A DNA stretch of 49,882 nucleotides from a virus: positions 1-49,882 of the IMG/VR virus record IMGVR_UViG_3300018481_000009; one strand, 5' to 3'. Shown piece after piece: positions 124 through 49,882 of this stretch. Position numbers and translations under genes: made by a program. Positions within the stretch are counted from its first letter, which is position 1; each line of letters begins with the position of its first letter. The notes below the pieces were generated by a model, which was not told where the DNA came from, ran no database searches, and saw nothing but the letters and a program-made list of their open reading frames with translations.

Positions 124-369
124 CGAGGCGTACGGGAGTGCCACCTCTTCATCCTCCTGTGGTCCCCGATGGCATACGGCGCGCTCATGGAGCTGGGGAT
201 GGCCATGGAGCGGAGGAAGCGTATCTGGATCATCGGTGAGTCCGAGCCAGGTCCGGGGTCCGTTCGGTTCTCGGTGTTCTGGCTCCTGCCCGACATCCAG
301 TTCGAGATCAAGTACGGGTGGGAAGCCATCCAGGAGTTGGAACACGGGGATGCCTTCCACGCCATCTAA
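1..369 (+). CDS. 3' part of wrap-around gene: nucleoside 2-deoxyribosyltransferase-like protein
   Basis: frame 1 is open from base 1; a GALMELGMAMERRKRIW motif resembles the catalytic Glu region of NDT/DNPH1-like proteins. Confidence 0.6.
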   Translation, partial: EIRQAGHEITYDWTVDVLKFGAGDPKEVPEDVMRKAAENDRRGVRECHLFILLWSPMAYGALMELGMAMERRKRIWIIGESEPGPGSVRFSVFWLLPDIQFEIKYGWEAIQELEHGDAFHAI

Positions 370-1807
370 GCTGGTCTTCAAGACCAAGCCTCGACCGTAC
401 CAGGTCCCCGCCCTCAAGAAGATGGTCAAGAACGGGGGTGGGGGTCTGTACGTCCCCATGCGGTGGGGGAAGTCGTGGATCGCTATCAACTGGGCAGCCG
501 CGATGGCCTTGAAGAACTTCCCCAACCAAATAACGCGCATCCTAATCGTGTGTCCTAACGACGTCAAGGCGGAGTGGGAGGAACAGCTCGAGTGGCACTG
601 CCCACTGCCTTATCGTCTGCTCGCGCAGCCAACAACAGCCCTGGTGAAGAACCCCAAGCAGAAGACCGAGCTGCACTTCCACATCCGGAACTACGAGGCC
701 ATGTACGCTCGGGAGCGGGACCTGCTAGACTTCGAGGCCAGCGAGACCAACCGATCCTGGACCGCGGTGACAGATAAGGCACTCCTGGTCTGGCAACCAC
801 ACCTGATGGTCGTGGATGAAGTCCACCACATAGGCAAGCCTACCACTAAACAGTCGGCTAAGGTCTGCCAAGTGGCTCGTACTTCCCACCACAGGTTGAT
901 GTTGACAGGAGCGCCCTTCCACCGCAAACCGTTCTTCATCTTTGGTCAGTTCAAATACTACGACCCGGGCATCTTCGGGGGCAACTGGGGCACGTTCAAA
1001 AGACACATCGCCGTGTTCGGTGGCTACGGTGGTTATGAAGTGAAGAAGTACCGCAACCTCGGTTGGGTCCGCAAGAAGGTTCGACCTCATGTGTGGATCT
1101 CACGCAAGGTGCCACTAGCTCCACCAGTCAGACGACGTATCCTGTTCTCATTGGAAGAGTCCAAGTACATCTACCAGGAGATGGAGAATGAGAGTGTCGT
1201 ACAACTGCGTGATACTTTTGCCGTGGCGGATATCGTCCTTACACGGCACCTTCGTCTCCAACAGATCGCGGGGGGGTGGGTCCGTACTCAAGATGGAAAG
1301 TTGGTCAGAGTTGGTCAGGAAAAGCGAAAGGCATTTGCTCGGCGGGTCGATGAGTACCGAGAGCAAGAAATTGCTCGATTCGTCGTCGGGGCACGTTTTC
1401 TCAAGGAAATGGTCGACATCTATGAAGTGGTCAAGGCCGCGGGGTACAAGCCCCTCATTGTCCATGGTGGTGTCACTCCAAAGAGGCGCAAGGAAAAGCG
1501 GAACTACTTCGCCAAGCACGAGAACACCGTTTTCATCTCGCAATTTCGGGCCAGCCGCGAGGGGATCGACCTCTCGGTAGCAGACACGATGGTGTTCTAC
1601 TCGCTGCCCGAAGATTATCTCACCTACGATCAGTTCGCCCACAGGATCGACAGGTTTGAAGATAAGCGCACGTTACTCTACGAGCACATGATAGCGAAGG
1701 GAACGCGCGATGAGGTAACGTTCGAGGCCTTGCAACGTCAACAGGACGTGGCTGCCTTCCTCATGACTCACCCAAAGTACGTAGAAGCCATCACGAGTAA
1801 TCTGTGA
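350..1807 (+). CDS. SNF2/DEAD-like helicase
   Basis: RWGKS Walker A-like motif, DEVH box and C-terminal QFAHRIDR motif VI; ATG at 350 follows GGGGA; the ORF-track start at 236 overlaps the upstream gene. Confidence 0.8.
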   Translation: MPSTPSKLVFKTKPRPYQVPALKKMVKNGGGGLYVPMRWGKSWIAINWAAAMALKNFPNQITRILIVCPNDVKAEWEEQLEWHCPLPYRLLAQPTTALVKNPKQKTELHFHIRNYEAMYARERDLLDFEASETNRSWTAVTDKALLVWQPHLMVVDEVHHIGKPTTKQSAKVCQVARTSHHRLMLTGAPFHRKPFFIFGQFKYYDPGIFGGNWGTFKRHIAVFGGYGGYEVKKYRNLGWVRKKVRPHVWISRKVPLAPPVRRRILFSLEESKYIYQEMENESVVQLRDTFAVADIVLTRHLRLQQIAGGWVRTQDGKLVRVGQEKRKAFARRVDEYREQEIARFVVGARFLKEMVDIYEVVKAAGYKPLIVHGGVTPKRRKEKRNYFAKHENTVFISQFRASREGIDLSVADTMVFYSLPEDYLTYDQFAHRIDRFEDKRTLLYEHMIAKGTRDEVTFEALQRQQDVAAFLMTHPKYVEAITSNL

Positions 1808-1855
1808 TATACTGTAATAGAGCCGAATTGTCCCTGCAACAGGAGGTTTGTGAGA

Positions 1856-2407
1856 GTGATTATTGTCGAGGGGCCAGACGGAGCGGGCAAGACAACCCTG
1901 GTCCAAAAGCTGGTGGAGGAGCACCCGGAGCTGGAAGTCGGAGTACGCGGCACGGACAACCGGGACTACCTGTGGAAGGTCACCGTCCCAGACACCATGA
2001 AGGCGCTCGCGGACTTCGCCATGTCACGGAGCAAGGTCAAAATCTGGGACCGGCTGTTCTACTCCGAGCTGGTCTACGCACCGCTGGGGATGCCGCCCAG
2101 GGAAATCGAGTTCAACGATCACCAGTCAGAACACATCCAGGGGATCATCAACGCGGCCGACTTCCCGGTCATCCTCTGCATGCCGCCTTGGACAGCGGTG
2201 GAAGAGAACATCATGAAGGAACACCAGATGTCCGGCGTCAAGGAGAACGCCAAGGCCATCTACGACCTGTACCGAGCACTCTTCGAGGACGGAATCCTTC
2301 CCGAGCGGACGGTGCTGTACGACTACACCCGAGGGATGGACGAGTACGAGGACATCGCAGGCGAGGTCGAGGACTACATCATCCACAAGAAGGCACGGTC
2401 ATGGTGA
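1856..2407 (+). CDS. thymidylate (dNMP) kinase-like P-loop kinase
   Basis: IIVEGPDGAGKTTL P-loop and a DRLFYSELVYAP motif as in Tmk; GTG 1856 lies 9 nt after AGGAGG, whereas GTG 1850 is too close to it. Confidence 0.7.
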   Translation: MIIVEGPDGAGKTTLVQKLVEEHPELEVGVRGTDNRDYLWKVTVPDTMKALADFAMSRSKVKIWDRLFYSELVYAPLGMPPREIEFNDHQSEHIQGIINAADFPVILCMPPWTAVEENIMKEHQMSGVKENAKAIYDLYRALFEDGILPERTVLYDYTRGMDEYEDIAGEVEDYIIHKKARSW

Positions 2408-2946
2408 ATATGGAGGAGCTGGAACGCATTGCCGGCGAGACCAAGAAGTGGAGGGACATCAACTTCCCGGGCTTCCTGCCGGGGGACCAGCTGCTTGGCG
2501 TGATCGAGGAACAAGGTGAACTCTCACACGCCTATCTCAAGGCCAAGCAGGGCATCCGAGGAACTCAGGAGGAACACGACGCCGCGGGTAGGGATGCTGT
2601 TGGGGACTGCATCATCTACCTGCTGGGCTACATGGACAACATGAGGCTCACTCCAACTCAAGTCCTCGGGCGATCACTTCCCGACCGACGAGTGGACAAC
2701 GCGGACAACGCCATCTTTGACCTTGCCAACCGTGTCGGTCGGCTAGCGAGATGGGAAGTGGACTCCTCACACTCCGACAACCGCTGGCGCGAGGTGAAAG
2801 GACGAGTCTGTGGGGAGATACTTCGCTCGCTCGAGGCGTACTGCCTCCACAGAGGTTGGGACGTCGTCGAGTGCACCCAGGACGCCTGGGACGAGGTCAA
2901 AGAGCGGGACTGGCTCAAGAACCGCCACGACGGGATGGCCAAGTGA
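2401..2946 (+). CDS. MazG-like nucleoside triphosphate pyrophosphohydrolase
   Basis: EEQGELSHAY...AVGDCIIYLLGY MazG-type helix motifs; ATGGTGA overlap with the kinase stop. Confidence 0.7.
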   Translation: MVNMEELERIAGETKKWRDINFPGFLPGDQLLGVIEEQGELSHAYLKAKQGIRGTQEEHDAAGRDAVGDCIIYLLGYMDNMRLTPTQVLGRSLPDRRVDNADNAIFDLANRVGRLARWEVDSSHSDNRWREVKGRVCGEILRSLEAYCLHRGWDVVECTQDAWDEVKERDWLKNRHDGMAK

Positions 2947-3773
2947 TCCGCGAAGCGGACACCCTCACGGAACTCTGGCACTCAGCTTGCGACGGCCTGC
3001 TGTTCTGTAAGGCCGAGGACCTGGGGTACCAGTCAGGAGCTACCACCGGCGTGTTCGACTGCATGCTGTCCACCCCGTCCATGGAGTTCGACTTCGACGT
3101 GGGAGCCGACCTCTGGCTCACGAAGCACAGGTTCGCCAAGCTGCAGAAGGACTACCTCGACCACGACCTCACTCGAGCCTTTGTCCACAAGGCAGCTTCC
3201 ATGACGCAGAACCTCGCCAAGAGGGGAACCGTCACCCAGATGAACACCCGGGTACACGGGGTCCAGGTCAACCAAGGCGGACGAAAGAAGGACAACTACA
3301 AGTGGGGGAACTGCATATTTGGTTATTCCTTCCGCCCAGCGCTCAAGGAACGGGCGGTGTTCTCCATGCATTCGAGGACGAGCTACATCTCGTATATGGG
3401 CGGCATGGATTTGGCCCTGGCCTACACCTTAGCGAAATCTATCGCCCAGCTGAGGGGCGACGACGTGAGGGAGTACGGCTTTCGATGGATGGCGGACTCA
3501 CTCCAGTGGTATTCGATCAAGTCCATGGCATACATACACACCTACGACCTCGTGGACGAGATCCTCGACACAAAAAAGTGGCCGGATAAGAAGTACCCGA
3601 CCGTCAAGATCACGAGGAACAGCTACGACTTCCTCCACAGGAGGTTGGAGGCCGACAACCCACCGAAGTACGGACCAACGCTAAGGATGTGGAGCTTGAT
3701 GTTCGAGACGGGCAACACCCGACGACCGGTGTCCCTCCCTGTGGATGACCTCCGGTTGGCGGTGGAACTGTGA
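2943..3773 (+). CDS. divergent thymidylate-synthase-fold protein (paralog 1)
   Basis: GNCIFGYSF...SRTSY...MGGMDLALAY aligns by eye to ThyA PCHAFFQF...RSCD...PFNIASY; GTGA overlap with the MazG stop. Confidence 0.45.
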   Translation: MIREADTLTELWHSACDGLLFCKAEDLGYQSGATTGVFDCMLSTPSMEFDFDVGADLWLTKHRFAKLQKDYLDHDLTRAFVHKAASMTQNLAKRGTVTQMNTRVHGVQVNQGGRKKDNYKWGNCIFGYSFRPALKERAVFSMHSRTSYISYMGGMDLALAYTLAKSIAQLRGDDVREYGFRWMADSLQWYSIKSMAYIHTYDLVDEILDTKKWPDKKYPTVKITRNSYDFLHRRLEADNPPKYGPTLRMWSLMFETGNTRRPVSLPVDDLRLAVEL

Positions 3774-4594
3774 TTTCCTTCAGCACCAACGACTACGCTG
3801 GCTTCGCGGATATGTACGCGAACATGGCCAGCTACTTCCTCAACCCGGCGTATTACCAGGAGGTGGACACGGGACACTGGCAGGCTCTCAAGGGCACACC
3901 TCACTCTCACACCCGGGAGATGCGCCACGTTCACCTCCAGAGTCCCATCTTTCCCACGATCGGGTCCTTGGCGTCCTGGTTCCAGCCGAATCTCCCGTGG
4001 GCAGAGGACCACTTCCTCGAGCGAGTGGGATACGAGCCACTCAACCCGGGAGAGCAGTACAAGAACTGGCCATGGTACAGAGGCGGGGTCGAGGATCACA
4101 AAGAGACGGGCCAGTTCTCGCACACCTACATGGAACGCTTCTGGCCTCGAACAGCGGGGGAGCCTGGGTCGTTCCCTATTCAGGGCCACAGGGGAATCCG
4201 GTACCGCTACGGTGATCTCAAAGACGTGCTCGATCTGCTGGCGCGGGAACCAATGACACGACAAGCCTACCTGCCCATCTGGTTCCCCGAGGACACGGGA
4301 GCCCACCACGAACAACGAGTTCCGTGCACGCTGGGCTACCACTTCATGGTCAGGAACGACCGGATGCACTGCTTCTACCCGATGCGCTCGGTGGATTTCG
4401 TCAGGTACCTCAAGGACGACCTGTACATGGCGGCCAGACTCGTCCTCCACGTCATCGGGATGCTGCAGAACCGGAACAACGGCTATTGGGATGTGGTGGC
4501 TCCGGGAACGCTCGAGTTCTTCGCCAGCTCGTTGCACATCTTCGACGGGGACGTCAAGAAGTTGAGGAGTGAATATGGCGACAAGACCTTCTAG
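3770..4594 (+). CDS. thymidylate synthase / dNMP hydroxymethylase-family protein (paralog 2)
   Basis: RQAYLPIWFPED, VPCTLGYHF (catalytic Cys), MRSVDF (RSxD) and SSLHIF motifs are colinear with ThyA; GTGA overlap. Confidence 0.65.
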   Translation: MISFSTNDYAGFADMYANMASYFLNPAYYQEVDTGHWQALKGTPHSHTREMRHVHLQSPIFPTIGSLASWFQPNLPWAEDHFLERVGYEPLNPGEQYKNWPWYRGGVEDHKETGQFSHTYMERFWPRTAGEPGSFPIQGHRGIRYRYGDLKDVLDLLAREPMTRQAYLPIWFPEDTGAHHEQRVPCTLGYHFMVRNDRMHCFYPMRSVDFVRYLKDDLYMAARLVLHVIGMLQNRNNGYWDVVAPGTLEFFASSLHIFDGDVKKLRSEYGDKTF

Positions 4595-5045
4595 AGACCA
4601 AACATTCATGGAGGTGGCACGTGTCTTCGCAAGACGATCGACTTGTAGGAGAGGCCAGGTGGGCGCTGTCCTGGTCCGAGATCGAAGAATCATCGCGACG
4701 GGCTACAACGGTGCTCCATCAGGGGCTCGGAATTGCCTCGAACTGGGTTGCCTGGTGCCTGAGGACAATCCGGACCTTGGATGCCAACGATCCATCCACG
4801 CTGAGGCTAACGTTATCGCTTACACGGCGAGGAGCCAAGGCGGAGCTGAGGGCACGACTCTATACAGTACCGCCAGTCCCTGCCTCAAGTGCGCCCAGCT
4901 CATCGCAGCGGCCGGCATCGAGAAAGTCATCTACGAAAACCCGTACCGGATCGCAGACGGACTAGAGCTGCTGGACTCTCTGTTCATTCCGTGTATCCAG
5001 TTCGCCTGGACCCCGATGGAGTCGGATAAGAACGACCGTGCCTGA
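4575..5045 (+). CDS. dCMP deaminase
   Basis: HAE...PCLKCA zinc motifs and ATGYNGAP; ATG 4575 lies 5 nt after GAGGAG. Confidence 0.85.
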   Translation: MATRPSRDQTFMEVARVFARRSTCRRGQVGAVLVRDRRIIATGYNGAPSGARNCLELGCLVPEDNPDLGCQRSIHAEANVIAYTARSQGGAEGTTLYSTASPCLKCAQLIAAAGIEKVIYENPYRIADGLELLDSLFIPCIQFAWTPMESDKNDRA

Positions 5046-7473
5046 CTTCCGGGATAAGATTCGCAACCCCGACTGCACGTTGTGTCCTCTCAACGAGTCG
5101 GCAGAACACGTGTGTCTGATGGGTAGCGGACCCCGGAAGGCGCGGGTCATGGTGATAGGGGAGGCGCCCGGGGCCAGGGAGGACGATTCTCATAAGGCGT
5201 TTGTGGGACGTTCTGGCAAGCTCCTGGACTCCGTGTTGTCGCAGGTAGGACTTCCCCGGGATGAGGTCTACGTGACCAACGTGGCTAAATGCCGGCCTCC
5301 AGAGAACCGGACTCCCAAACGCGGTGAAATCAAGACCTGTGTGGAGGAGTACCTCATCCCCGAGTTCGAGGCCGTCAAGCCCGAGTTCGTGCTCCTCCTC
5401 GGCAATGCTCCACTGATCGGAGTCATCGGCAAGAGTGGCATCACCAAACACAACGGGACGGTCTGGAAAGTCGAGGTGGCTGATGGGCATTGGGCCAGGG
5501 TCTTTGCAACGGTTCACCCTGCAGCTGTACTTCGCAACCCGCGCTTTACGCAGGTTTTCGCAGCTGATATCACGCGTTTCGGAAACCTGGTCAACAATCG
5601 GGACGTCACCCCCAAGACCGACGTGCGACTCGTTACGAAAAAGCGGCATATGCTATGGCTATATGACCAACTCATGGAAGCCACCGAGATTAGCTGGGAC
5701 GTTGAAACGGATACCGAACAGAAGCCGGGGTTTGTACGGACCGCAGGTCAGGATTGGCACGGTGATGAATCATGGATCTGTTCCATCGCCTTCTCATGGG
5801 ATGAAGGTGCATCCGCCGCGGTACCGCTCATGCACCCCGAAACTCCGTGGGCCAACCCGAAGGCGGTCCTAGAAGCACTCAGAAGGCCACTGACCCGAGG
5901 ACGAGAGGTCAAGTACATCGCGCACAACGGGAAGTTCGACGCGAAGTGGCTCCACTCCAAAGGCATCCCAATCCGTCAAGACTTCGACACAATGCTCGCG
6001 GCTCACATGGTCGATGAGAACCAGTTCAAGGGGCTCAAGCCGCTGAGCAAGGTCGAGCTAGGAGCAGCTGCTTACGGAGTGGGTGAGGACATCAAGCATC
6101 CCTCCAAGGCTCCGATACGCAAGCTCTGTATCTACAACGGCAAGGACACCGACTACACGCTCCGATTGTATCACGTGTTCCGCGAGCATTTGAAGCAGGA
6201 CCCGCGCAGCGCGATGGTATTCCTCAAGCTCATGATGCCAGCCTCTAATGCCCTTGTGGATATCGAGCGCACCGGGGTCTGGGTGGACCCAGAACGGTGG
6301 GAAGAACGGTACATCCAAGCACAGGAGAATCGCGACAAGGTCCACGACTACATCGATCAGTTCTGGACCGAGGACGCCAAGATCAATCTGAACAGTCCTC
6401 CACAGGTTGGGAGGCTCTTGTTCCGCGATCTGGAGCTACCGATTCTCATGAAGACCAAGACCGGGGCGGCTAGTACGGCTGAAGCGGTCCTCCTGAGGCT
6501 CGAGGATCAGCATAAGGTGGCCAGAGCCATCATGATCTACAGAAAGTGGGCGAAGTATGTCAACACGTATCTTGGTCCTTGGAAGTACGAATGGATGGAT
6601 AGTCGAGGCAGAATCCACTCCCAGTACAAGCTCTTTGGAACGGTTACTGGACGGCTATCTGGTGAGGGAGGAATTCAGCAGGTGCCTCGAGATCCTTTCA
6701 TCCGATCCGTTATTGGAGCGCCTCCTGGATGGAGCTTCGTTCAAGGTGACTTTTCACAGGTCGAGCTACGGGTCGCATTCTGGCAAGCCGACGAGAGGAA
6801 CGGACTCCGGCACTACATGAAGGGTGAGGACGTGCACATGATCCGTGCACTCCGTATGACAGGCAAGGTCGACCCGAAGAAGGTCACCAAGGAAGAACGC
6901 AAGCGGGCTAAGCCAGTCTCATTCGGTTACGTCTACGGGATGGGAGCGGCCAAGTTCGTCAGCTACGCCTTCGACAACTACGGGCTCAAAGTCACGGAGG
7001 ATGAGGCGCAACGTGATCGTAATCAATTCTTCAGTGATTACCCGGCTCTTCGTCCATGGCACGATCGTCAGCGTAAACTTGCCCGCCGATATGGACGGGT
7101 TGTATCGCCTATTGGTCGTGTACGACACCTACCTGATATCACGTCTGATGATGAGAAGGTACGTCAGGAGGCGGAGCGCCAGGCGATCAACTCGCCAATC
7201 CAATCTTTCGCCTCTGACGCCATGCTCATCGCTCTCATCCGACTGCAACGAATGCTTCCCCCTTCAGAAGCCAAGATCGTGGCAACTGTACACGACGCCA
7301 TCCTCTTCGAGGTCAGGGACGACAAGCTCGACAAGTGGCTTCCCGTGATCAAGGAAGTGATGGAAGATATGGACTACATCAAGCGACTGTTCGGAACGGA
7401 GGTCGGAGTGCCTATCGTAGCAGACATCGAGGTAGGGCGACATTGGGGTGAGGGCAAGCCATGGGCGGCGTGA
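5038..7473 (+). CDS. family-4 uracil-DNA glycosylase domain fused to a family A DNA polymerase (3'-5' exo + pol)
   Basis: N-terminal CTLC, GEAPG..E, FVGRSG and HPAAVLRN (UDG4 motifs); then DVETD (ExoI), DFSQVELRV (motif A), RKRAKPVSFGYVYG (motif B) and VHDAILFE (motif C). Confidence 0.85.
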   Translation: MPDFRDKIRNPDCTLCPLNESAEHVCLMGSGPRKARVMVIGEAPGAREDDSHKAFVGRSGKLLDSVLSQVGLPRDEVYVTNVAKCRPPENRTPKRGEIKTCVEEYLIPEFEAVKPEFVLLLGNAPLIGVIGKSGITKHNGTVWKVEVADGHWARVFATVHPAAVLRNPRFTQVFAADITRFGNLVNNRDVTPKTDVRLVTKKRHMLWLYDQLMEATEISWDVETDTEQKPGFVRTAGQDWHGDESWICSIAFSWDEGASAAVPLMHPETPWANPKAVLEALRRPLTRGREVKYIAHNGKFDAKWLHSKGIPIRQDFDTMLAAHMVDENQFKGLKPLSKVELGAAAYGVGEDIKHPSKAPIRKLCIYNGKDTDYTLRLYHVFREHLKQDPRSAMVFLKLMMPASNALVDIERTGVWVDPERWEERYIQAQENRDKVHDYIDQFWTEDAKINLNSPPQVGRLLFRDLELPILMKTKTGAASTAEAVLLRLEDQHKVARAIMIYRKWAKYVNTYLGPWKYEWMDSRGRIHSQYKLFGTVTGRLSGEGGIQQVPRDPFIRSVIGAPPGWSFVQGDFSQVELRVAFWQADERNGLRHYMKGEDVHMIRALRMTGKVDPKKVTKEERKRAKPVSFGYVYGMGAAKFVSYAFDNYGLKVTEDEAQRDRNQFFSDYPALRPWHDRQRKLARRYGRVVSPIGRVRHLPDITSDDEKVRQEAERQAINSPIQSFASDAMLIALIRLQRMLPPSEAKIVATVHDAILFEVRDDKLDKWLPVIKEVMEDMDYIKRLFGTEVGVPIVADIEVGRHWGEGKPWAA

Positions 7474-7688
7474 AGATCAACCGAGCCAAGCGGAAGCTGG
7501 TCCACGAGTTATGGCGAGCCTGCCTCCTGAACCCTGTGGTCCTGGCTCGGAGCGAGCTGGACTGGATCATGCGGGCACACAAGGAGGGCTTCACTCCGGG
7601 TGAGTTGCAGTTCCTGGAGGAACGCCATGACGAGCTGGTAAAGATGCATGAGGACCTGATCAAGGTCTACTACAGGCTCAAGAAATGA
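7461..7688 (+). CDS. hypothetical protein
   Basis: ORF overlaps the polymerase stop; GGTGAGGG lies upstream. Confidence 0.6.
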   Translation: MGGVKINRAKRKLVHELWRACLLNPVVLARSELDWIMRAHKEGFTPGELQFLEERHDELVKMHEDLIKVYYRLKK

Positions 7689-8680
7689 CCTCCACAGTAA
7701 TCGAGCGCCAGTACGGCAATTGGGAGCTGTTGTCGAACTCCCGAGTCAAGACCTGGCGGAGGTGTCCCAAGCAGTTCGAGTACAAGTACGTGCTCGGGCT
7801 CAAGCCTCGGAAGCTCTCCATCCATCTCGAGCGAGGCACGTGGCTTCACGACCTTCTGCAGCACCACTACGACGGCGAGAGCTGGTACGCCCGACACAAG
7901 CAGTTGACCAAGGAGTTCTATCTGCTGTTTGAGGAGGAACGCGAAGACCTTGGCGATCTGCCTACCGACGTGGAGCGGCTCTTCCGATCGTATCTGTACA
8001 ACTATCGCATCGAGGATCGGTCCTGGCGGGTCATCGACTCCGAGCTGGACGAGATAGTCACGCTGCCCAATGGCCTCCGATTCCGCATGATCGTCGACCT
8101 CGTGGTAGAGGAGCCAGACGGTGGCATCTGGATCGTAGATCACAAGTCGGTGGGACGGTTCCTGCCGCCAGACTTCCTGCTCTTGGACGCTCAGCTGGGG
8201 CGGTACTTCTGGGGCATGGAGTTGCTAGGCTACAAGCCGCTCCGAGGAGTCCTCTTCAACGAGATCATCACCAAGGCTCCGACCCTGCCGAAGTTCATCC
8301 ACAAGGGTACACAGCTGGAGAAGCGGAAGAACCTTCACTGTGACTTCTACACGTACTACAAGATGCTCCAAGACAACGACCTGGCCATCGGGCCTCACGT
8401 CCAGTTCCTCAGGCATCTCCGGAGGCAGAACGACCAGTGGTTCCGCCGGACTCCACTTGCCAAGGACGCCCCGCTCATGAAGCGGCTCATGAAGGAACTC
8501 GTCTGGTCGGCGAGAGAAATCAAGTCCGCTGAAGAGACGGACGCCTTCCCACGCACCGTCTCCAAGGATTGCCAGTGGGACTGCTCGTTCCTCGAGCCAT
8601 GCGCCATCCAGTTGATGGGTGGAGATGCATCCGCAAGCTTCAAGCTCCGCTACACCAACCGGGAGGACCGGGATGACTAA
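7685..8680 (+). CDS. PD-(D/E)XK Cas4/RecB-like exonuclease with C-terminal Cys cluster
   Basis: N-terminal CPKQFEYKY, IVDLVVEE...DHK nuclease core and C-terminal CQWDCSFLEPC; ATGA overlap. Confidence 0.75.
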   Translation: MTSTVIERQYGNWELLSNSRVKTWRRCPKQFEYKYVLGLKPRKLSIHLERGTWLHDLLQHHYDGESWYARHKQLTKEFYLLFEEEREDLGDLPTDVERLFRSYLYNYRIEDRSWRVIDSELDEIVTLPNGLRFRMIVDLVVEEPDGGIWIVDHKSVGRFLPPDFLLLDAQLGRYFWGMELLGYKPLRGVLFNEIITKAPTLPKFIHKGTQLEKRKNLHCDFYTYYKMLQDNDLAIGPHVQFLRHLRRQNDQWFRRTPLAKDAPLMKRLMKELVWSAREIKSAEETDAFPRTVSKDCQWDCSFLEPCAIQLMGGDASASFKLRYTNREDRDD

Positions 8681-8940
8681 TGAAACGCCGGAAGCTGTCA
8701 CCTCAGCAGAAGGCCAAGAAGAAGGCACACAACCAAAGGACCGACCGCGCGTGGAAGATATGGGCCAAGCGCCACGTCGTGGAGCAAGCATCGACCTCTC
8801 CAAGTGGTTCTCCGCCTGGAAAAGGGTCCGTCGCCCAGGGAGGAATGACACTGAAGGATGAAGACTGGACACCAACAATATACGGGGGGGTGAAACGTGG
8901 CAAGAAAGGTCAATACCAAGGCCCTGTCAACCAAGGGTGA
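8680..8940 (+). CDS. hypothetical basic protein (reading frame uncertain)
   Basis: TAATG overlap with the upstream stop; GC3 bias is good only for about the first 40 codons (see findings). Confidence 0.35.
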   Translation: MKRRKLSPQQKAKKKAHNQRTDRAWKIWAKRHVVEQASTSPSGSPPGKGSVAQGGMTLKDEDWTPTIYGGVKRGKKGQYQGPVNQG

Positions 8941-9682
8941 ACGAGTGGCCCGGAGGATCAAGTCTGTGGATGAGGCCAACAAGTTCGTCAAGATTCTGGT
9001 CTACGGCAAGAACAAGAAGGGCAAGACCAGGTTCGCAGCTACGGGGCCGGAATGTCTGATCATTGACATCGACGAGGAAGGTACGCGGTCCGCCACAGGA
9101 TCGGGAGCCGATGTCCTCGAGGTCAGTCAGTTCGACGACGTGGGCCATATCTTCTGGTGGCTCAAAGCCGGGAACCACGAGTACGAGACGGTCGTCCTGG
9201 ATACCGTTACGGCCTTGCAGGCGGCCGCGATGAGGAAGGTACTCGGGGAATCAGAGGATCGGGACCCGACAAGGGAGGTGGCTACACCTGATAGACGGAC
9301 CTACGGGAGAGCCAACCAGCTCGTCAAGCAGTTGCTGCTCGACTTCCGCAACCTCAAGATGCACGTGATCTTCCTCGCGCAGGAGAGGGACGTCAAGGAC
9401 GACGAAGACGAGGAGTCAAGCACCTTTCATACAGTCGACTTGCCGCCCGGTACCAGAGCCACTGCCCTTGGCTCGGTAGGCATCATCGGACGGATCTATC
9501 TCAGGGAGGTGAAGGTCAAGGGCCAGAAGCGACCGGAGTGGGAAGCACGAATGTTGGTGGGACCGCATGAGGACTACGACTCGGGCAACCGAGTTGACGG
9601 ACTCCCCATCATCGTACGCGATCCCACCATGTCCAAATTCATCAAAGCGTGGGCAGCAAACCCACCGGACGACGAGGAGTAA
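8897..9682 (+). CDS. Sak4-like RecA-fold AAA ATPase
   Basis: ILVYGKNKKGKT Walker A and VVLDT Walker B; sits between a nuclease and an SSB-like gene. Confidence 0.7.
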   Translation: MARKVNTKALSTKGERVARRIKSVDEANKFVKILVYGKNKKGKTRFAATGPECLIIDIDEEGTRSATGSGADVLEVSQFDDVGHIFWWLKAGNHEYETVVLDTVTALQAAAMRKVLGESEDRDPTREVATPDRRTYGRANQLVKQLLLDFRNLKMHVIFLAQERDVKDDEDEESSTFHTVDLPPGTRATALGSVGIIGRIYLREVKVKGQKRPEWEARMLVGPHEDYDSGNRVDGLPIIVRDPTMSKFIKAWAANPPDDEE

Positions 9683-11358: not shown

Positions 11359-12156
11359 TTACAGAACCGTGAGAGCGAACCGATTGGGGTGTTCGGCTCG
11401 ACCGCCCAGCGGATTGCCGATGCAGGTGCGGAACAACTTGATCTTCGTGTTCCGCCTCCCGTTGACCCGGTAGCGAACCCGAGCCACGTAGACCGATCGC
11501 TTCTGGCCCCGTAGGTTCACGCGGACGGTACGGAGCACTCGGCCTCCGCGGGTTCGTGACCGAGTCACCCGAGCTGGGACACCTTCGACCGTCGCTCGGA
11601 AGTTCGTGATCCGGACGTTCCGCCGTTGGACGAGGCGCCAGCGAGAGATTCGCCGCGAGGTACAGGTGTCAGCCTCGAGCGTAACTCCATTCGCGCCAGC
11701 GGGCCCACTCGGTCCAGCAGGACCAGCCGGGCCAATCGGTCCGATCGGTCCAATAGGTCCAAGGGGGCCAACAGGTCCAACTGAACCTGGGGGGCCTGCC
11801 GGTCCGGGCGCACCGTCCTCGCCGTCGTCCCCGTCCTCACCGTCTTCGCCGTTGCAGACGTAGAACACGTCGTCCTCCGGGTCAGGCGGCTTGGGCGGGT
11901 GGTCACCCGTCTTCGGCTCGGCGTTGGCGTCGATTTCCCCGTGGATGACGATCAGCTGGAGGCCACCGTTCGGGCAGTTCTCGCCCGGCGGTTCCACCAC
12001 CACGATGACCCCGTCGCCGTCGTCGTCGCAGAGGTCGGTCGGGTTGCCGTTCGCACACGGCGTCTGCGGGTCTGCTTGCGTAACTGCTGGTAGTGCCATC
12101 GCGAACGCCCATGCCATCAACATGGCGATCGAGACAGCAAGCAACTTCACCTTCAT
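11359..12156 (-). CDS. secreted collagen-like repeat protein
   Basis: GAGGAG RBS; signal-peptide-like [28 protein letters not shown]; about 17 Gly-X-Y triplets; Arg-rich C-terminus. Confidence 0.75.
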
Positions 12157-41129: not shown

Positions 41130-43142
41130 CTACTGTGACGATTTGACGATGAACAGTTTGTGTGAGCCGTTGGTGCGGGTATCTTTGACTGCGTATCCTG
41201 CCTTCTCCGCACGGCGTCTGGCGGCCCTGATACTGATGTCCAGCGCGTCTGCCACGGTGCGTATTGCCACTCGGCCGTCGTTGTCCTCCACCAGGTCCTC
41301 CAGCGTGTTGTACTCCTCCGCGGCCTTGGCCCTGGGACTGCCAACCTGTACGGTGTACGCTGGGTCGTCGTCAGTGCCAAGGTCGAACTGGACGTCCAGG
41401 CGGCCTCTGGAGGCATGTCCCCTGTGGAGGGGCACCATGTGCACGAACGATTCGGCCTCATTCGGTCGGTCCAGTAGCAACGCGGACTCGTACCACCTGC
41501 CGAAAACTCCCGTGCCGCTGATCCTCTCGGTCATGCTCTTGACAGGGTTCTCGGCGTTGGCCTTTTTGAAGTGGTGAATGATGAGAGTACCACAGCCATA
41601 CCGTTGTTTGATCTTCAACAGCCGTTGTAACACCGGCGTCATCTGGTGGGCGGAGTTCTCGTCGACTCCCTCGGCCATCAAGTACAACGGGTCGAGGATG
41701 AGCAGCTGAGGGTTGATCCTGCGAATCTGCTTGCGCAGCCACCGGACATCGGACTCCTCCGTCAAGTCAAAGTCGATCAGCCCGGACGGCATGAACAGCG
41801 GGTACTCCGACCCCTTGATCTTGAGTGCTCGCGCGCCGTTGGTCGTGTACGACTCCCCCAACCCTCGCGACTGCTCGATCCTCTCGATCATGTCCTGCAC
41901 GTCCCCGAGCTGGTTCTCCTTCTGAATCATGATCACGGGCCCTTGCTTCGGCACCGGAAACTGATTGAGGAAGTTGCTACCCGACGCGACCGAGATAGCC
42001 ATGTCGAGTGCGACCAGACTCTTGAAACTCTTGGGTGGCCCAGCGATTACCCCGTGAGCGTGTCCACTCCAGATTCCCTCAACCGTCCACCTTGTCCTCG
42101 GAATCTTCTTGCGTCGGAACTCGTCGACTCTGACCAGTTGCCTCCTGGTCCCTTCGCTTCGCTTCCTCGCGGATGCGGTTGATCCGTTCTGCTTGGAGGT
42201 GCTCTTTCCGTTCTTGCGGGGTGCCTCCTTTCGCGAGTTCTTCGATGAGTTCGTTGATACTGTGTCGGCCGCCTTGTTTACTTCGGACCATAGTTGTTGG
42301 TCCTCTCGTTGTTGGCCCCTGTACTTGTTGCACGGTGCTGCTTTCACCATGACAAATGACTGTGCGGGTGGCACCCCTACCTCCGCCAGTAACATCTCCA
42401 ACTTGTACAACGCCTCACTACGGCTTCCCACCGGTACTGCTTCCTTCAGCAACCGCTTTGCCTCGATCGTGAGCTTAGGTCCCCAGCGCTTCCGCAGCCT
42501 CTGGGGCGTGCTCTTGCTGACCTTGAAGTCCGCCAGCTCACCTGCTACTTGGATACCCACAGGTGTAGATTTCACCGCGTCGTATATCGCGGCAGCCTCG
42601 TACACGGTCTTGGGTGAGTACCACAAGAGGTTCACCTTCCTGTGGTCCCCACGCTTGTTGTTGAAGCTGCCGGGTACCCTCAGTACCTTGGTGCAACTCC
42701 AACCGCCCTTGTCAGCCCCAATGTGGTACGTGAGAAGCTGGTTCACCCGCTCGAACTGATCTGGGCGTAGCGGTCTCTCTAAGAGCCACATGGCCTGAAA
42801 CCGACCTTCCGAGGTCTCCCAGGCTATTGTCGGCCTCAGGTGGGCCGCTATGCTATCCGGTACGACCTCATCTAGATCAGCGTAGAGCCACTTGCCCGGG
42901 AGAGCGAATTGTTTCTGCCGCCGCGGCTCCGAGAAGAGCGTCGGGGCGAAGTAGAGGTCATCGAGCGTCGGAAGCTTCTTGAGGTCCAACGCTGGGATGT
43001 CCTGCCAACTGCCTGTGGTCCAATCCTTGGCAGCGAGGATGGCGTGGTAGTCGCCTGTACCTCGATACTGCAACTTCCACATGGCAGTAACAAACTTGGA
43101 TGCGAAATCTAAGGGCACATCATCAGCTCCAGTCGAGAACAA
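41130..43142 (-). CDS. bifunctional primase-polymerase / RepA-DnaB-like helicase
   Basis: N-terminal YADLDEV and TIAWETSEGRFQAMW (prim-pol-like); central GPPKSFKS Walker A and LLILDPL Walker B; TTG start uncertain. Confidence 0.75.
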   Translation of the reverse strand: MFSTGADDVPLDFASKFVTAMWKLQYRGTGDYHAILAAKDWTTGSWQDIPALDLKKLPTLDDLYFAPTLFSEPRRQKQFALPGKWLYADLDEVVPDSIAAHLRPTIAWETSEGRFQAMWLLERPLRPDQFERVNQLLTYHIGADKGGWSCTKVLRVPGSFNNKRGDHRKVNLLWYSPKTVYEAAAIYDAVKSTPVGIQVAGELADFKVSKSTPQRLRKRWGPKLTIEAKRLLKEAVPVGSRSEALYKLEMLLAEVGVPPAQSFVMVKAAPCNKYRGQQREDQQLWSEVNKAADTVSTNSSKNSRKEAPRKNGKSTSKQNGSTASARKRSEGTRRQLVRVDEFRRKKIPRTRWTVEGIWSGHAHGVIAGPPKSFKSLVALDMAISVASGSNFLNQFPVPKQGPVIMIQKENQLGDVQDMIERIEQSRGLGESYTTNGARALKIKGSEYPLFMPSGLIDFDLTEESDVRWLRKQIRRINPQLLILDPLYLMAEGVDENSAHQMTPVLQRLLKIKQRYGCGTLIIHHFKKANAENPVKSMTERISGTGVFGRWYESALLLDRPNEAESFVHMVPLHRGHASRGRLDVQFDLGTDDDPAYTVQVGSPRAKAAEEYNTLEDLVEDNDGRVAIRTVADALDISIRAARRRAEKAGYAVKDTRTNGSHKLFIVKSSQ

Positions 43143-47443: not shown

Positions 47444-47805
47444 CAGAGTCCCACCCCTACGTGATCCACGTACGTCGTGGGGAAGGACGCCTGAACTATC
47501 GCATGACAACGTGGGAGTTGATCGCCAACCGGGTGTCAGAGATGGCTTGGAAATCGGCGACCGACTTCATCTACCTACAACACACGCGACCGGACGCAGC
47601 TCCGTTGATTGACACGCGGAGTATCCGTCCGATGATGCTCAAGCTACCACACCGCGACTTCCCTCTGTTGGGTACGCTCAGTTTACTCCGAGCATTCCAA
47701 GAGGAGTGGAAAGAGATGGACGCAGTGGAGATTGGGGGTGAGGGGGCATTGTCCCCCGACATGAGCAGGGCCAGAGTAGTTATCGTTGATCTAGTTGATG
47801 GATAG
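47440..47805 (+). CDS. hypothetical protein
   Basis: GGGAAGGTGG RBS before ATG 47440. Confidence 0.6.
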   Translation: MTESHPYVIHVRRGEGRLNYRMTTWELIANRVSEMAWKSATDFIYLQHTRPDAAPLIDTRSIRPMMLKLPHRDFPLLGTLSLLRAFQEEWKEMDAVEIGGEGALSPDMSRARVVIVDLVDG

Positions 47806-47813
47806 GAGACCGA

Positions 47814-48011
47814 ATGGCCACGAAGACAAGCACCAAGAAGGTCGTCGTCATGATGGACCGGGAGCGCGCCACCAAGAACAAGCAGCGCTTCGAGGAGAGG
47901 GACCGAGACAGCAAGGAGTGCATCGGCATCCTCTACGCCGACAAGAAGAACATCGACGAGGTGCTCGGCGAGCCGGACAGCCTCAAGATCACCATCGAGG
48001 CCGGAGACTAG
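47814..48011 (+). CDS. hypothetical protein
   Basis: TAGGAG RBS. Confidence 0.6.
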   Translation: MATKTSTKKVVVMMDRERATKNKQRFEERDRDSKECIGILYADKKNIDEVLGEPDSLKITIEAGD

Positions 48012-48122
48012 GTGGAAGCGAGTACCGTCGTCGACATGATCCAGCTAGCGACCAACATCGCCTGGTTCCTCGTCATCGTCCTGTTCCTCTACATCATCTA
48101 CACCGCGAGGAGAGTGAAGTGA
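48012..48122 (+). CDS. small TM peptide (..IQLATNIAWFLVIVLFLYIIYTARRVK)
   Basis: GTG after the upstream TAG (or ATG 48036); its stop overlaps the next GTG. Confidence 0.4.
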   Translation: MEASTVVDMIQLATNIAWFLVIVLFLYIIYTARRVK

Positions 48123-48535
48123 CCGTCATCCTAGCAATGCTGGCGCTGGCAACAGCCCCGGAGGAGTACAAGCCGCACTACCGCTTCTGCAACACCAGGG
48201 CCTGCGACCAGCGGGTCCACGCCATCCGCAACCGCAGGAAGGTCCAGGCGAGACACAAGGCCCAGGTCAGAGCCGAGAGGCACGACGCCAAGAGGCGCAA
48301 GGTCGTCAGGCCGTACCGAGCCTGGTTGGCATCCACCAGACGCTGCGAATCCGGCGGCCGCTACCACATAGCCACAGGTAACGGGTTCTACGGCGCCTAC
48401 CAGTTCACCGTGAGCAGCTGGTACGCAGCAGGAGGACGGGGGATGCCACACCTCAACCCGCCGTTGGAGCAGGACTACAGGGCCGTCCGACTCCTACACA
48501 TCCAAGGCCGCGGAGCCTGGCCCAACTGTGGGTAA
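48119..48535 (+). CDS. resuscitation-promoting-factor (Rpf)-like transglycosylase with N-terminal hydrophobic anchor
   Basis: CESGGRYHIATGNGFYGAYQFTVSSWYAAGGRGMPH...EQ...GRGAWPNCG closely matches the remembered Rpf domain. Confidence 0.8.
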   Translation: MTVILAMLALATAPEEYKPHYRFCNTRACDQRVHAIRNRRKVQARHKAQVRAERHDAKRRKVVRPYRAWLASTRRCESGGRYHIATGNGFYGAYQFTVSSWYAAGGRGMPHLNPPLEQDYRAVRLLHIQGRGAWPNCG

Positions 48536-48550
48536 TCTACCGGGAGAACA

Positions 48551-49156
48551 ATGAGCGACGCCCAAGACAGTCTCCACGCCAGCAGGATCACTGACCACCC
48601 CTTCATGCCACCGAGCAGAGAGGAGTGGTATCGACCGTGCAAGGTCTGCAGGATGGCAGAGGCAGCCCACAGGGAGTCCACCTTGTACGACCCAGCCCGA
48701 CAGGTCAAAACGCTCTTGCACATGACCTACCTGGACCAGCACTTGGAGAAACGCGACTTCGCCCTAGGAGGCTCAGCCGTGCTCGCCCTACGGGGCATGC
48801 GGCCTATCCGGGACCTCGACATATACGTCACTCCGTTCTTCTACAGGCACGTCTTCAAGTCGGACAAGGGGTGGGTGGAGTGGGACCCCGACCCTAACGA
48901 CCCCATTGGCCACTCGAAGATGCCACAGCTCGTGAAGGTAGTCAACCACATCACCTGCACGATGGCAAGGGAGTGGAAGCACGGAGGCTACCCCAAGCGC
49001 ATCGACGTACAGGACTCCATCGGGGACCCGGAGTTCGTACAGGGCATCCCGTGCATCCCATTGCACATCGTCTACGAGTGGAAGAAGTCTGTCGGCCGAC
49101 CAAAGGACATCCAAGACGTGGAAATGATCGACAAGTGGAGGGAGACGCATGGCTAG
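48551..49156 (+). CDS. nucleotidyltransferase-fold protein
   Basis: GGSAVLALRGMRPIRDLDIYV (GS...DxD) and C-terminal GRPKDIQDVEMI. Confidence 0.55.
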   Translation: MSDAQDSLHASRITDHPFMPPSREEWYRPCKVCRMAEAAHRESTLYDPARQVKTLLHMTYLDQHLEKRDFALGGSAVLALRGMRPIRDLDIYVTPFFYRHVFKSDKGWVEWDPDPNDPIGHSKMPQLVKVVNHITCTMAREWKHGGYPKRIDVQDSIGDPEFVQGIPCIPLHIVYEWKKSVGRPKDIQDVEMIDKWRETHG

Positions 49157-49703
49157 GTTCGTTTCGATAGACATCGAGACCGGGGGATTAGACCCACAGA
49201 GGCATCCGATCACTGAGGTGGGGATGGTGATCGAGGACATGAACCACGGTATCAGTAAGGTCGAGTTCTCGTTGCCATTCGACCCCGCGGACTGTGACCC
49301 CGTGGCCCTCGAGGTTCAGGGGTGGGGCAAGCGCGACCTACCCAAGCGGTGGGAACCACCGAGAGCGGCCGGCTTCATCCACGAGTCCACGAGGGACGCT
49401 CACATCGTTGGGAAGAACCCGTGGTTCGACGCCAGCTTCCTCGAGGTGTTCCTGAAGATGTACGACCTCACCCCGCCATGGCACCACCGCCTAGTGGATG
49501 TGGGGTCGCTGGCCTGGGGGTGGTACAACGGAGTCGAGGACTGCATGACATCAACAATCACGGGGAGTCACCAAGTGGACCCGCCGAACTCGGTCAGAGT
49601 CGGGGAGCTGGTAGGCATCTTCATGAACCCCGACGCGAGGCACGCAGCCATGTACGACGCGGAGTGGGCCTACGACGTCTTCAGCAAGATCGTGCCCCGA
49701 TGA
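49149..49703 (+). CDS. DEDDh (DnaQ-like) 3'-5' exonuclease
   Basis: SIDIETGG (ExoI), NPWFDASFL (ExoII), HAAMYDAE (ExoIII). Confidence 0.8.
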   Translation: MARFVSIDIETGGLDPQRHPITEVGMVIEDMNHGISKVEFSLPFDPADCDPVALEVQGWGKRDLPKRWEPPRAAGFIHESTRDAHIVGKNPWFDASFLEVFLKMYDLTPPWHHRLVDVGSLAWGWYNGVEDCMTSTITGSHQVDPPNSVRVGELVGIFMNPDARHAAMYDAEWAYDVFSKIVPR

Positions 49704-49882
49704 AGGTCTACGTCGCAGCCTCCAGCCAGCACGCCACCCAGGCCGCCCGGTTCATGCGAGAGATTCGCCAGGCCGGCCATGAAATCACGTACGACTGGAC
49801 AGTGGATGTCCTCAAGTTCGGGGCCGGTGACCCCAAGGAAGTGCCAGAAGACGTCATGAGGAAGGCCGCAGAGAACGACAGA
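49700..49882 (+). CDS. 5' part of wrap-around gene: nucleoside 2-deoxyribosyltransferase-like protein (continues at 124-369)
   Basis: ATGA overlap with the stop of the upstream exonuclease gene; MKVYVAASSQ N-terminus typical of the NDT/Rcl fold. Confidence 0.65.
   Translation, partial: MKVYVAASSQHATQAARFMREIRQAGHEITYDWTVDVLKFGAGDPKEVPEDVMRKAAENDR
49760..49882. repeat. second copy of the 123-bp terminal repeat
   Basis: identical to 1-123. Confidence 0.9.

Follow-up and report, generated by a model that had tools for sequence, protein, structure and literature searches.

A conserved phage gene cassette that may supply a C5-modified cytosine nucleotide for DNA replication

The 49,882-nucleotide stretch of viral DNA analysed here (IMG/VR virus record IMGVR_UViG_3300018481_000009, positions 1 to 49,882; the whole stretch is called the window) carries an unbroken run of six genes on its plus strand, from about 1850 to 7473. 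In order, these encode a Tmk-like deoxynucleoside monophosphate (dNMP) kinase, a MazG-like nucleoside triphosphate pyrophosphohydrolase (NTP-PPase), an orphan protein with the predicted fold of thymidylate synthase (TS; gene 3), a divergent enzyme of the TS superfamily (gene 4), a zinc deaminase, and a DNA polymerase I fused to a uracil-DNA glycosylase (UDG-PolA). According to the reading preferred here, which is given an even chance on the sequence evidence, the cassette makes a C5-modified cytosine deoxynucleoside triphosphate (dNTP) before replication, and the virion DNA carries the modified base. The product would probably be 5-hydroxymethylcytosine (5hmC) rather than 5-methylcytosine (5mC). 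A preliminary description of the same DNA had proposed the replacement of a pyrimidine, with 5-hydroxymethyluracil (hmU) or 5hmC as the new base. Replacement before replication stood as the best-supported reading, and hmU was disfavoured by the aspartate found at the position of ThyA Asn177.

In the proposed pathway, the MazG-like enzyme would hydrolyse deoxycytidine triphosphate (dCTP), and also deoxyuridine triphosphate (dUTP), to the monophosphate (dCMP or dUMP). Judged by the fold and the residues of gene 4, its conserved cysteine would attack C6 of dCMP, and the one-carbon unit of methylene-tetrahydrofolate would be transferred to C5; the intermediate would more likely be hydrated to the hydroxymethyl than reduced to the methyl product. 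The Tmk-like kinase would carry the modified dCMP, thymidine monophosphate (dTMP) or both towards the triphosphate, and the fused UDG-PolA would incorporate the modified dNTP. The deaminase may divert dCMP to dUMP, or part of the modified deoxycytidine pool to the matching deoxyuridine or thymidine nucleotide, and thereby balance the supply of thymidine nucleotides; this role was modelled on T4 cd and on the Xp12-type deaminases of 5-methyl-dCTP (5mdCTP). Gene 3 would be an indispensable subunit partnering gene 4, or else a further enzyme for cytosine nucleotides that works with another cofactor.

Active site of gene 4

Gene 4 scored below the curated Pfam and NCBIfam thresholds for ThyA (Table 1). 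The best NCBIfam match, TIGR03283, reached 35 bits at a cut-off of 174, and TIGR03284 reached 14 bits at a cut-off of 108. Its predicted model, with a predicted local distance difference test (pLDDT) of 81.5, was matched by Foldseek to MilA, AfhB and ThyA at E-values of about 1e-9 and template modelling (TM) scores of about 0.6. In a search of the PDB with the gene 4 family profile, MilA and AfhB ranked above every ThyA, and Foldseek ranked them likewise. Both are cytosine-specific members of the TS fold, MilA being a cytidine monophosphate hydroxymethylase and AfhB (HY126) an RB69 gp48-type dCMP 5-hydroxylase. Identity in these matches is 9-18%. MilA and AfhB further differ by the ribonucleotide substrate of MilA and its place in antibiotic biosynthesis, and by the D169N exchange of the 5-hydroxylases, where gene 4 keeps Asp169.

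Alignments were made with MAFFT and HMMER and took in E. coli ThyA, T4 gp42, the dCMP methylases of Xp12 and PaMx74, and a ViI-type dUMP hydroxymethylase. In E. coli ThyA numbering, gene 4 keeps Cys146, Arg126, Arg166, Ser167, Asp169 and His207; it is changed at five positions (N177D, H147T, L143R, Y209F, and Arg127 to Gln). In its own numbering, Cys186, Arg206, Asp209 (Asp169 of ThyA) and Asp217 (N177D) were invariant among 42 homologs. Ser207 and Arg183 (Leu143) were invariant in the family, and H147T was so or nearly so. The Asp216-Asp217 pair was kept throughout the 42 homologs either in this form or as Asn-Asp, the form found in the phages Muddy and GTE2 and exactly that of T4 gp42. In ThyA, the N177D exchange makes dCMP the substrate in place of dUMP, and no other positions separate modified (restriction-resistant) from unmodified metavirome contigs as well as 177 and 147 do (PMC8670742). 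Because N177D and H147T fall on these published discriminating positions, the substrate of gene 4 is very probably dCMP rather than dUMP.

Gene 4 ends about 13 residues past the HxF strand and therefore has no C-terminal tail; E. coli ThyA and the Xp12 and PaMx74 enzymes run about 45-55 residues longer. In ThyA this tail seals the site for hydride transfer, and in T4 dCMP hydroxymethylase, from which it is missing, tetrahydrofolate is regenerated and dihydrofolate reductase (DHFR) is not needed (PMC6400193). Neither a DHFR nor a second canonical TS was found by tblastn of the window or by family scans of 31 open reading frames (ORFs) drawn from the module, from the genes beside it and from the replication arm. 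Since the tail is missing and, as indirect support, no DHFR was found, the analysis leans towards hydroxymethylation rather than methylation. Judged by family scores, position 177 and the tail, gene 4 is not an ordinary ThyA.

Two closer assignments were considered. D169N is the mark of the flavin-dependent 5-hydroxy-dCMP synthases (PMC13326640); a 5-hydroxy-dCMP synthase of the RB69 gp48/AfhB type was rejected, as Asp209 (Asp169) is kept and invariant. An Xp12-type dCMP methyltransferase would agree with N177D, but the tail retained by that type and its linked DHFR were not seen.

The 5mC systems of Xp12 and PaMx74, which consist of an NTP-PPase, a dCMP methyltransferase, a 5mdCTP-selective deaminase and a DHFR, resemble the cassette in layout, with an N177D TS homolog directly upstream of a gene of the dCMP deaminase family and an adjoining NTP pyrophosphohydrolase. 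Among E. coli ThyA, T4 gp42 and the Xp12 enzyme, only the last matched gene 4 by BLAST (1.7e-9). The two phages differ from the window in their full ThyA C-terminal domain and adjacent DHFR, and no counterpart of gene 3 is annotated at that position. T4 offers the same functional triad together with a deaminase (gp56 dCTPase, gp42, gp1 dNMP kinase and cd deaminase). T4 gp42 and gene 4 share the Cys-Thr pair, an Asn/Asp-Asp pair at the Asn177 position, the retained Asp169 and the lack of a C-terminal tail. No direct BLAST similarity exists between them, however, and at the water-activating position 143 gene 4 has Arg where T4 has Asp. The window further differs from T4 by an NTP-PPase of the MazG rather than the gp56 type, by the extra ThyA-fold protein, by its siphovirus-like 50-kb genome and by its PolA, and neither a glucosyltransferase nor td or frd as separate genes were detected in it. 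T4 beta-glucosyltransferase and gp56 were not found in the window by tblastn.

The hmU alternative follows the SPO1 route: deamination to dUMP, hydroxymethylation by a ThyA-fold enzyme, and 5-hydroxymethyluracil in place of thymine, or, as a variant, deamination of 5-hydroxymethyl-dCMP to 5-hydroxymethyl-dUMP. The parts list matches that of SPO1, and gene 4 is weakly similar (23-26% identity) to the ViI-type dUMP hydroxymethylases. The variant could draw on seven phage deaminases that gave 5-hydroxymethyldeoxyuridine in DNA when fed 5-hydroxymethyldeoxycytidine nucleotides (bioRxiv 10.1101/2024.12.05.627091). The pathway needs, however, a dUMP hydroxymethylase with Asn177, and gene 4 has Asp, not Asn, at this base-reading position, as gene 3 probably does too; no 5-HMUDK, aGPT-Pplase or other downstream hmU-modifying gene was detected in the scanned ORFs. 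Thymine replacement of this kind was considered very unlikely.

Gene 3, a second protein with the predicted ThyA fold

The preliminary description had named two ThyA-fold proteins, and the predicted structures of both products (2943-3773 and 3770-4594) matched structures of the TS superfamily. Gene 4 was assigned by sequence and fold, gene 3 by its AlphaFold2 (AF2) model and Foldseek. No sequence link between gene 3 and any TS was found with Pfam, NCBIfam, phmmer and hmmsearch against the PDB, or hhalign against the gene 4 profile. The AF2 model of gene 3, built from a 41-sequence alignment, reached a pLDDT of 93.7 and a predicted TM score of 0.91. All its Foldseek matches in the PDB with E<=1e-3 belonged to the TS superfamily, with modest TM scores of 0.35-0.54. 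The best was the AfhB dCMP hydroxylase 9iqu (1.3e-5, TM 0.54 normalised to the target), and MilA, T4 dCMP hydroxymethylase and many ThyAs were also matched. In BFVD, the best matches were uncharacterised phage proteins (TM 0.63-0.73), one of them from Pseudomonas phage PMBT14, followed by annotated thymidylate synthases and gp42-type dCMP hydroxymethylases. By predicted structure alone, gene 3 is thus linked to the TS superfamily and has its fold.

The family is small; a set of 1.84 billion proteins contains 308 of its members as 50%-identity representatives. Tyr71, Gly122, Cys124 and Arg145 were invariant in 53 members with identities down to 17%, Asp156 was kept in all but one, and Arg63, Ser144 and Trp182 were nearly invariant. 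Arg145 follows Cys124 by 21 residues and Asp156 follows Arg145 by 11; the corresponding distances in ThyA (Cys146, Arg166, Asn177) are 20 and 11. In the models of gene 3 and gene 4, the Cys, Arg and Asp residues lie at equivalent points of equivalent strands and of the helix. From the spacing and these models, Cys124, Arg145 and Asp156 were inferred to stand in register with Cys146, Arg166 and Asn177 of ThyA, and would be the nucleophile, the phosphate-binding residue and the residue that reads the cytosine. The position of ThyA Asp169 is Tyr or Phe in 44 of the 53 sequences, which argues against canonical folate binding by gene 3.

Gene 3 could also catalyse nothing, as a degenerate duplicate or as a partner with a structural role only; the cassette would then be plainly T4- or Xp12-like. 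Its lack of sequence similarity to any TS and the Tyr/Phe at the Asp169 position agree with this, and its constant place next to gene 4, with translational coupling, would fit a non-catalytic subunit. The invariance of Cys124 and Arg145, the near-invariance of Asp156 and the ThyA-like spacing of the three residues speak against it, such conservation being unexpected in a pseudoenzyme, and a non-catalytic gene 3 was therefore judged improbable. Equally improbable is a previously undescribed two-component system of TS-fold proteins in which genes 3 and 4 act as a heterodimer or as sequential enzymes, gene 3 uses a cofactor other than folate, and the DNA gains a cytosine derivative that is neither plain 5mC nor plain 5hmC. 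The non-folate cofactor was proposed because of the Tyr at the Asp169 position and because the best structural match, AfhB, is a flavin-dependent dCMP hydroxylase. Were this so, a large cross-phylum group of siphoviruses including Muddy would carry an unusual cytosine derivative.

Cassette layout, relatives and weighing of the readings

The five genes between 1856 and 5045 that had been described as translationally coupled were all recovered on the plus strand. Within the six-gene run, each gene overlaps the next at its stop and start codons: the overlaps are ATGGTGA, GTGA, GTGA and some 20 nt at the first four junctions, and 8 nt where the deaminase gene meets polA. Positions and family matches of the individual genes are collected in Table 1.

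Table 1. Positions and family or domain matches of the cassette genes and of other features of the window
Feature	Position	Strand	Evidence
Tmk-like dNMP kinase	1856-2407 (alternative GTG start 1850)	+	PHROG 761 'thymidylate kinase', 1.3e-19
MazG-like all-alpha NTP pyrophosphohydrolase	2401-2946	+	PHROG 1992/715 'MazG-like pyrophosphatase', 7e-10 and 3e-8
Gene 3, orphan protein with predicted ThyA fold	2943-3773	+	PHROG 13667 (function unknown); AF2 fold
Gene 4, divergent TS-superfamily enzyme	3770-4594	+	PF00303, 24.0 bits (cut-off 24.3); PHROG 160, 2e-27
dCMP/cytidine-deaminase-family zinc deaminase	4575-5045 (alternative GTG start 4569)	+	PF00383, 1.2e-24, 86.6 bits (cut-off 25); PHROG 174, 2e-53
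UDG-exo-PolA (family-4 UDG, 3'-5' exonuclease, DNA polymerase I)	5038-7473	+	PF03167, 6.5e-30 (residues 29-169); PF01612; PF00476, 1.8e-80
SNF2-family helicase, conserved upstream neighbour	236-1807	+	PF00176, PF00271, PF04851; syntenic in related loci
PD-(D/E)XK nuclease, downstream neighbour in the same replication module	7685-8680	+	PF12705, 3.3e-19; synteny
AAA_24 ATPase, downstream neighbour in the same replication module	8897-9682	+	PF13479, 3.7e-23; synteny
Nucleoside 2-deoxyribosyltransferase/DNPH1-like gene	49700-49882, continuing 124-369	+	PF05014, 29.7 bits (cut-off 28.8)
RNase T/DEDD-type exonuclease	49149-49703	+	PF00929, 7.8e-8
Protein with C-terminal transglycosylase-like domain	47795-48535	+	PF06737, 7.6e-19
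Protein with collagen triple-helix repeats	11359-12156	-	PF01391, 7e-9
Protein with RepB-type primase N-terminal domain and AAA_25 ATPase (670 aa)	41130-43142	-	

The kinase carries the P-loop GPDGAGKTT and a DRL motif; in Pfam and NCBIfam it gave P-loop matches only, all below threshold. The public gene call begins at 1856, and orthologs occupy the same slot in Muddy (gp49), GTE2 (orf42) and Serbin (gp53). The MazG-like protein shows the acidic motifs EEQGE...DAVGD (EExxE, DxxxD). It had no match in Pfam or NCBIfam, and its best PDB sequence match, DCTPP1, was weak (E=0.35). In the deaminase, the zinc motifs HAE (HAEANV) and PCxxC (PCLKC) are present; the public call starts at 4608, and homology reaches upstream of this point. 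Its identity with the deaminases of Serbin, GTE2 and Muddy is 40-44%; with their counterparts in the 5mC phages PaMx74 and Xp12 it is 33-35%.

The UDG-polymerase fusion noted earlier downstream of the deaminase was borne out by PF03167, PF01612 and PF00476; its start overlaps the deaminase stop codon. Because the GEAPG, KCRPP and HPAAVLR motifs and the N-terminal cysteines of the UDG domain (5038-5550) are kept, the fused family-4 UDG looks catalytically intact. The fusion protein has 811 aa. SP15-type UDG-PolA fusions, which were considered as a guide and rejected, exceed 1,000 aa and occur in T-modified (T-hypermodified) phages (bioRxiv 2025.03.26.645540).

Related loci were collected by searching with the profile of gene 3. 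The 36 IMG/VR loci obtained in this way all show, as far as the contigs extend, one gene order that GTE2 and Muddy share: helicase, kinase, NTP-PPase, gene 3, gene 4, deaminase, PolA, PD-(D/E)XK nuclease and AAA_24. Gene 4 was present in every such locus that reaches far enough downstream. The layout is also that of Serratia phage Serbin and Yersinia phage P744, where a highly diverged homolog fills the slot of gene 3; this protein shares 64% identity with the protein of PMBT14 that was matched to gene 3 by structure, and it retains the Cys, the Arg and an Asp at +11. The cassette could be located in four cultured phages: Mycobacterium phage Muddy (gp45-49), Gordonia phage GTE2 (orf36-42), Serratia phage Serbin (gp49-53) and Yersinia phage P744 (ORF025-030); the gene order was also noted in Pseudomonas phage PMBT14. 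The four share the orthologous gene order and the active-site signature with the window; they differ in that protein identity is only 23-44% and the NTP-PPase is replaced non-orthologously. In the slot between kinase and gene 3, no mutual similarity was found among the proteins of locus L001 (4477-4833), locus L006 (4494-5120), locus L007 (5522-5980) and the window (2401-2946). Those of the relatives are all-alpha and annotated as dCTP pyrophosphatase or dUTPase, which suggests one function repeatedly replaced by non-orthologous genes.

The order is interrupted in places. In GTE2, a putative cutinase is inserted between the TS homolog and the deaminase (L001 7007-7846), and in IMG/VR contig L020 a LAGLIDADG endonuclease lies between genes 3 and 4 (7759-8199). 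Inserts between genes 3 and 4 in relatives encode homing endonucleases, helix-turn-helix (HTH) proteins or proteins of unknown type. The related locus L015 has a collagen-like ORF at this place.

A gene neighbourhood of this kind has been described. A dCMP deaminase gene lies within 3 kb of a TS homolog in 70% of modified and 6% of unmodified contigs, and the commonest co-located domains are TS, PRA-PH (MazG-like) and DNA_pol_A (bioRxiv 10.1101/2024.12.05.627091, MetaGPA authors). The layout of the window matches this neighbourhood of TS, PRA-PH, DNA_pol_A and deaminase. According to the same source, such deaminases can show selectivity for 5-methyl or 5-hydroxymethyl deoxycytidine nucleotides, and they supply thymidine triphosphate (dTTP) in Xp12-type phages.

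The most serious alternative is that the virion DNA is canonical and the cassette only raises the supply of dTTP. Gene 3, gene 4 or both would then be a very divergent dTMP synthase, or gene 4 would convert dCMP to 5-methyl-dCMP (5mdCMP) for deamination to dTMP; the kinase would be a thymidylate kinase and the MazG-like enzyme a dUTPase. The same parts list fits such a plain supply, and the GenBank labels of the cultured relatives examined (thymidylate synthase, thymidylate kinase, dUTPase, deaminase) and the PHROG names likewise denote thymidylate metabolism. An intact-looking family-4 UDG on the polymerase would fit the exclusion of uracil, and Xp12-type deaminases turn 5mdCTP into dTTP, so that a methylase and a deaminase together can end in T. 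On the other side stand the invariance or near-invariance of N177D and H147T in the gene 4 family and the scores of gene 4 far under the ThyA equivalog cut-offs. Reductive methylation would have to proceed without the C-terminal tail, and no DHFR was found. A bypass through 5mdCMP that runs beside a kinase of its own and a dCTPase-like enzyme should let some 5mC escape into DNA, as happens in Xp12. Ordinary dTMP synthesis and salvage, which the preliminary description had left as a trivial reading, was thus weakened by N177D, by the lack of a tail and by the searches for a DHFR, which found none; it is held to be unlikely, less markedly so than the other alternatives.

Several further observations weigh against cytosine modification, or against 5hmC as its product. 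Known hydroxymethylases typically have an acidic residue at position 143 (PMC13326640), and Asp145 of T4 gp42 activates the substrate water there; gene 4 has Arg183 instead of Asp or Glu. Among characterised sequences, BLAST places the Xp12 dCMP methylase closest to gene 4 (22% identity, 1.7e-9). Because of the Arg at 143, and because the Xp12 methylase is the only one of the characterised relatives compared that BLAST detects, hydroxymethylation is no more than probable and methylation a candidate. Over the N-terminal half of gene 4 the alignment with ThyA is poor, and the equivalent of the folate-activating Glu58 could therefore not be placed. Literature searches on Muddy, GTE2, Serbin, P744 and PMBT14 yielded no chemical, nucleoside or restriction data on virion DNA. 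No modification was reported in them for Muddy or GTE2, and no such report was found even though Muddy and many SEA-PHAGES isolates are heavily studied. In agreement with the earlier observation that no glycosyl- or aminotransferase could be recognised, no glycosyltransferase or other transferase was detected with Pfam and PHROG in the 31 scanned ORFs of the window or in ten sampled insert ORFs between genes 3 and 4 of relatives. Besides recognised functions, these ORFs gave only LAGLIDADG, HTH, collagen-like and unknown proteins. Finally, the window still avoids some 6-bp palindromes.

One database record bears directly on gene 3: ORF027 of P744 (L045 5001-5834), which is of the gene 3 type, is labelled 'pyrimidine hmase synthase'. 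It was the only record seen that names a function for the family, and the P744 paper makes no mention of 'pyrimidine hmase synthase' ORF027.

Replacing cytosine before replication is already known for systems in which a deaminase is linked to an N177D TS homolog; the invariant pairing with an orphan TS-fold protein and the tail-less active site with Arg143 are new. The module was found in phages of Mycobacterium, Gordonia, Streptomyces, Microbacterium, Serratia, Yersinia, Pseudomonas and Brevundimonas and on many metagenomic contigs, and it is probably mis-annotated as ordinary thymidylate metabolism. If the cytosine reading is correct, a widespread replication module that databases name thymidylate metabolism encodes cytosine replacement, and the TS superfamily gains a sequence-orphan clade with a conserved nucleophile. 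The restriction and CRISPR sensitivity of the carrier phages, their sequencing and their engineering would also be affected; among them is Muddy, a therapeutic mycobacteriophage that has been used in compassionate-use therapy. Since several phages that bear the cassette are in culture, the hypothesis is directly testable.

Genome window and surroundings

The ends of the window share an identical 123 bp (1-123 = 49760-49882), and because of this terminal overlap the window is a complete genome, present as a circularly closed or terminally redundant contig. Its unique length is 49,759 bp, with a G+C content of about 59.5%. The sequence matches the ENA metagenome contig k141_296179 (ERZ27251452). 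No cultured phage is close to it in DNA sequence; the sole megablast matches were patches of 125-141 bp within Gordonia phage 'thymidylate synthase' genes.

The deoxyribosyltransferase/DNPH1-like gene, described earlier as flanking the module, exists and spans the junction of the window ends. It is not a component of the module, however: the SNF2 helicase gene lies between it and the cassette, and just 4 of the 39 related loci contain it. It is an accessory of few relatives, outside the conserved core. The gene directly upstream of it encodes an RNase T/DEDD-type exonuclease.

The transglycosylase-like domain PF06737 is typical of actinobacterial resuscitation-promoting factors. The protein carrying it in the window, together with the fact that the best phage relatives infect Gordonia and Mycobacterium, points to an actinobacterial host.

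Avoidance of palindromes and restriction sites was considered as a proxy for modification and dropped, as the 5mC phages Xp12 and PaMx74 score similarly and the measure does not discriminate. Strongly avoided in the window were AGATCT (0 observed, 8 expected), GGATCC (1 and 11) and AGTACT (1 and 12); GAGCTC was also avoided. The tetranucleotide TTAA is absent from the whole window, where about 15 occurrences were expected from a second-order Markov model and far more from base composition alone.

Two further genes listed in Table 1 lie on the minus strand. One encodes collagen triple-helix repeats; the product of the other, which is on the strand opposite to the replication module, joins an AAA_25 ATPase to an N-terminal domain of the RepB primase type.

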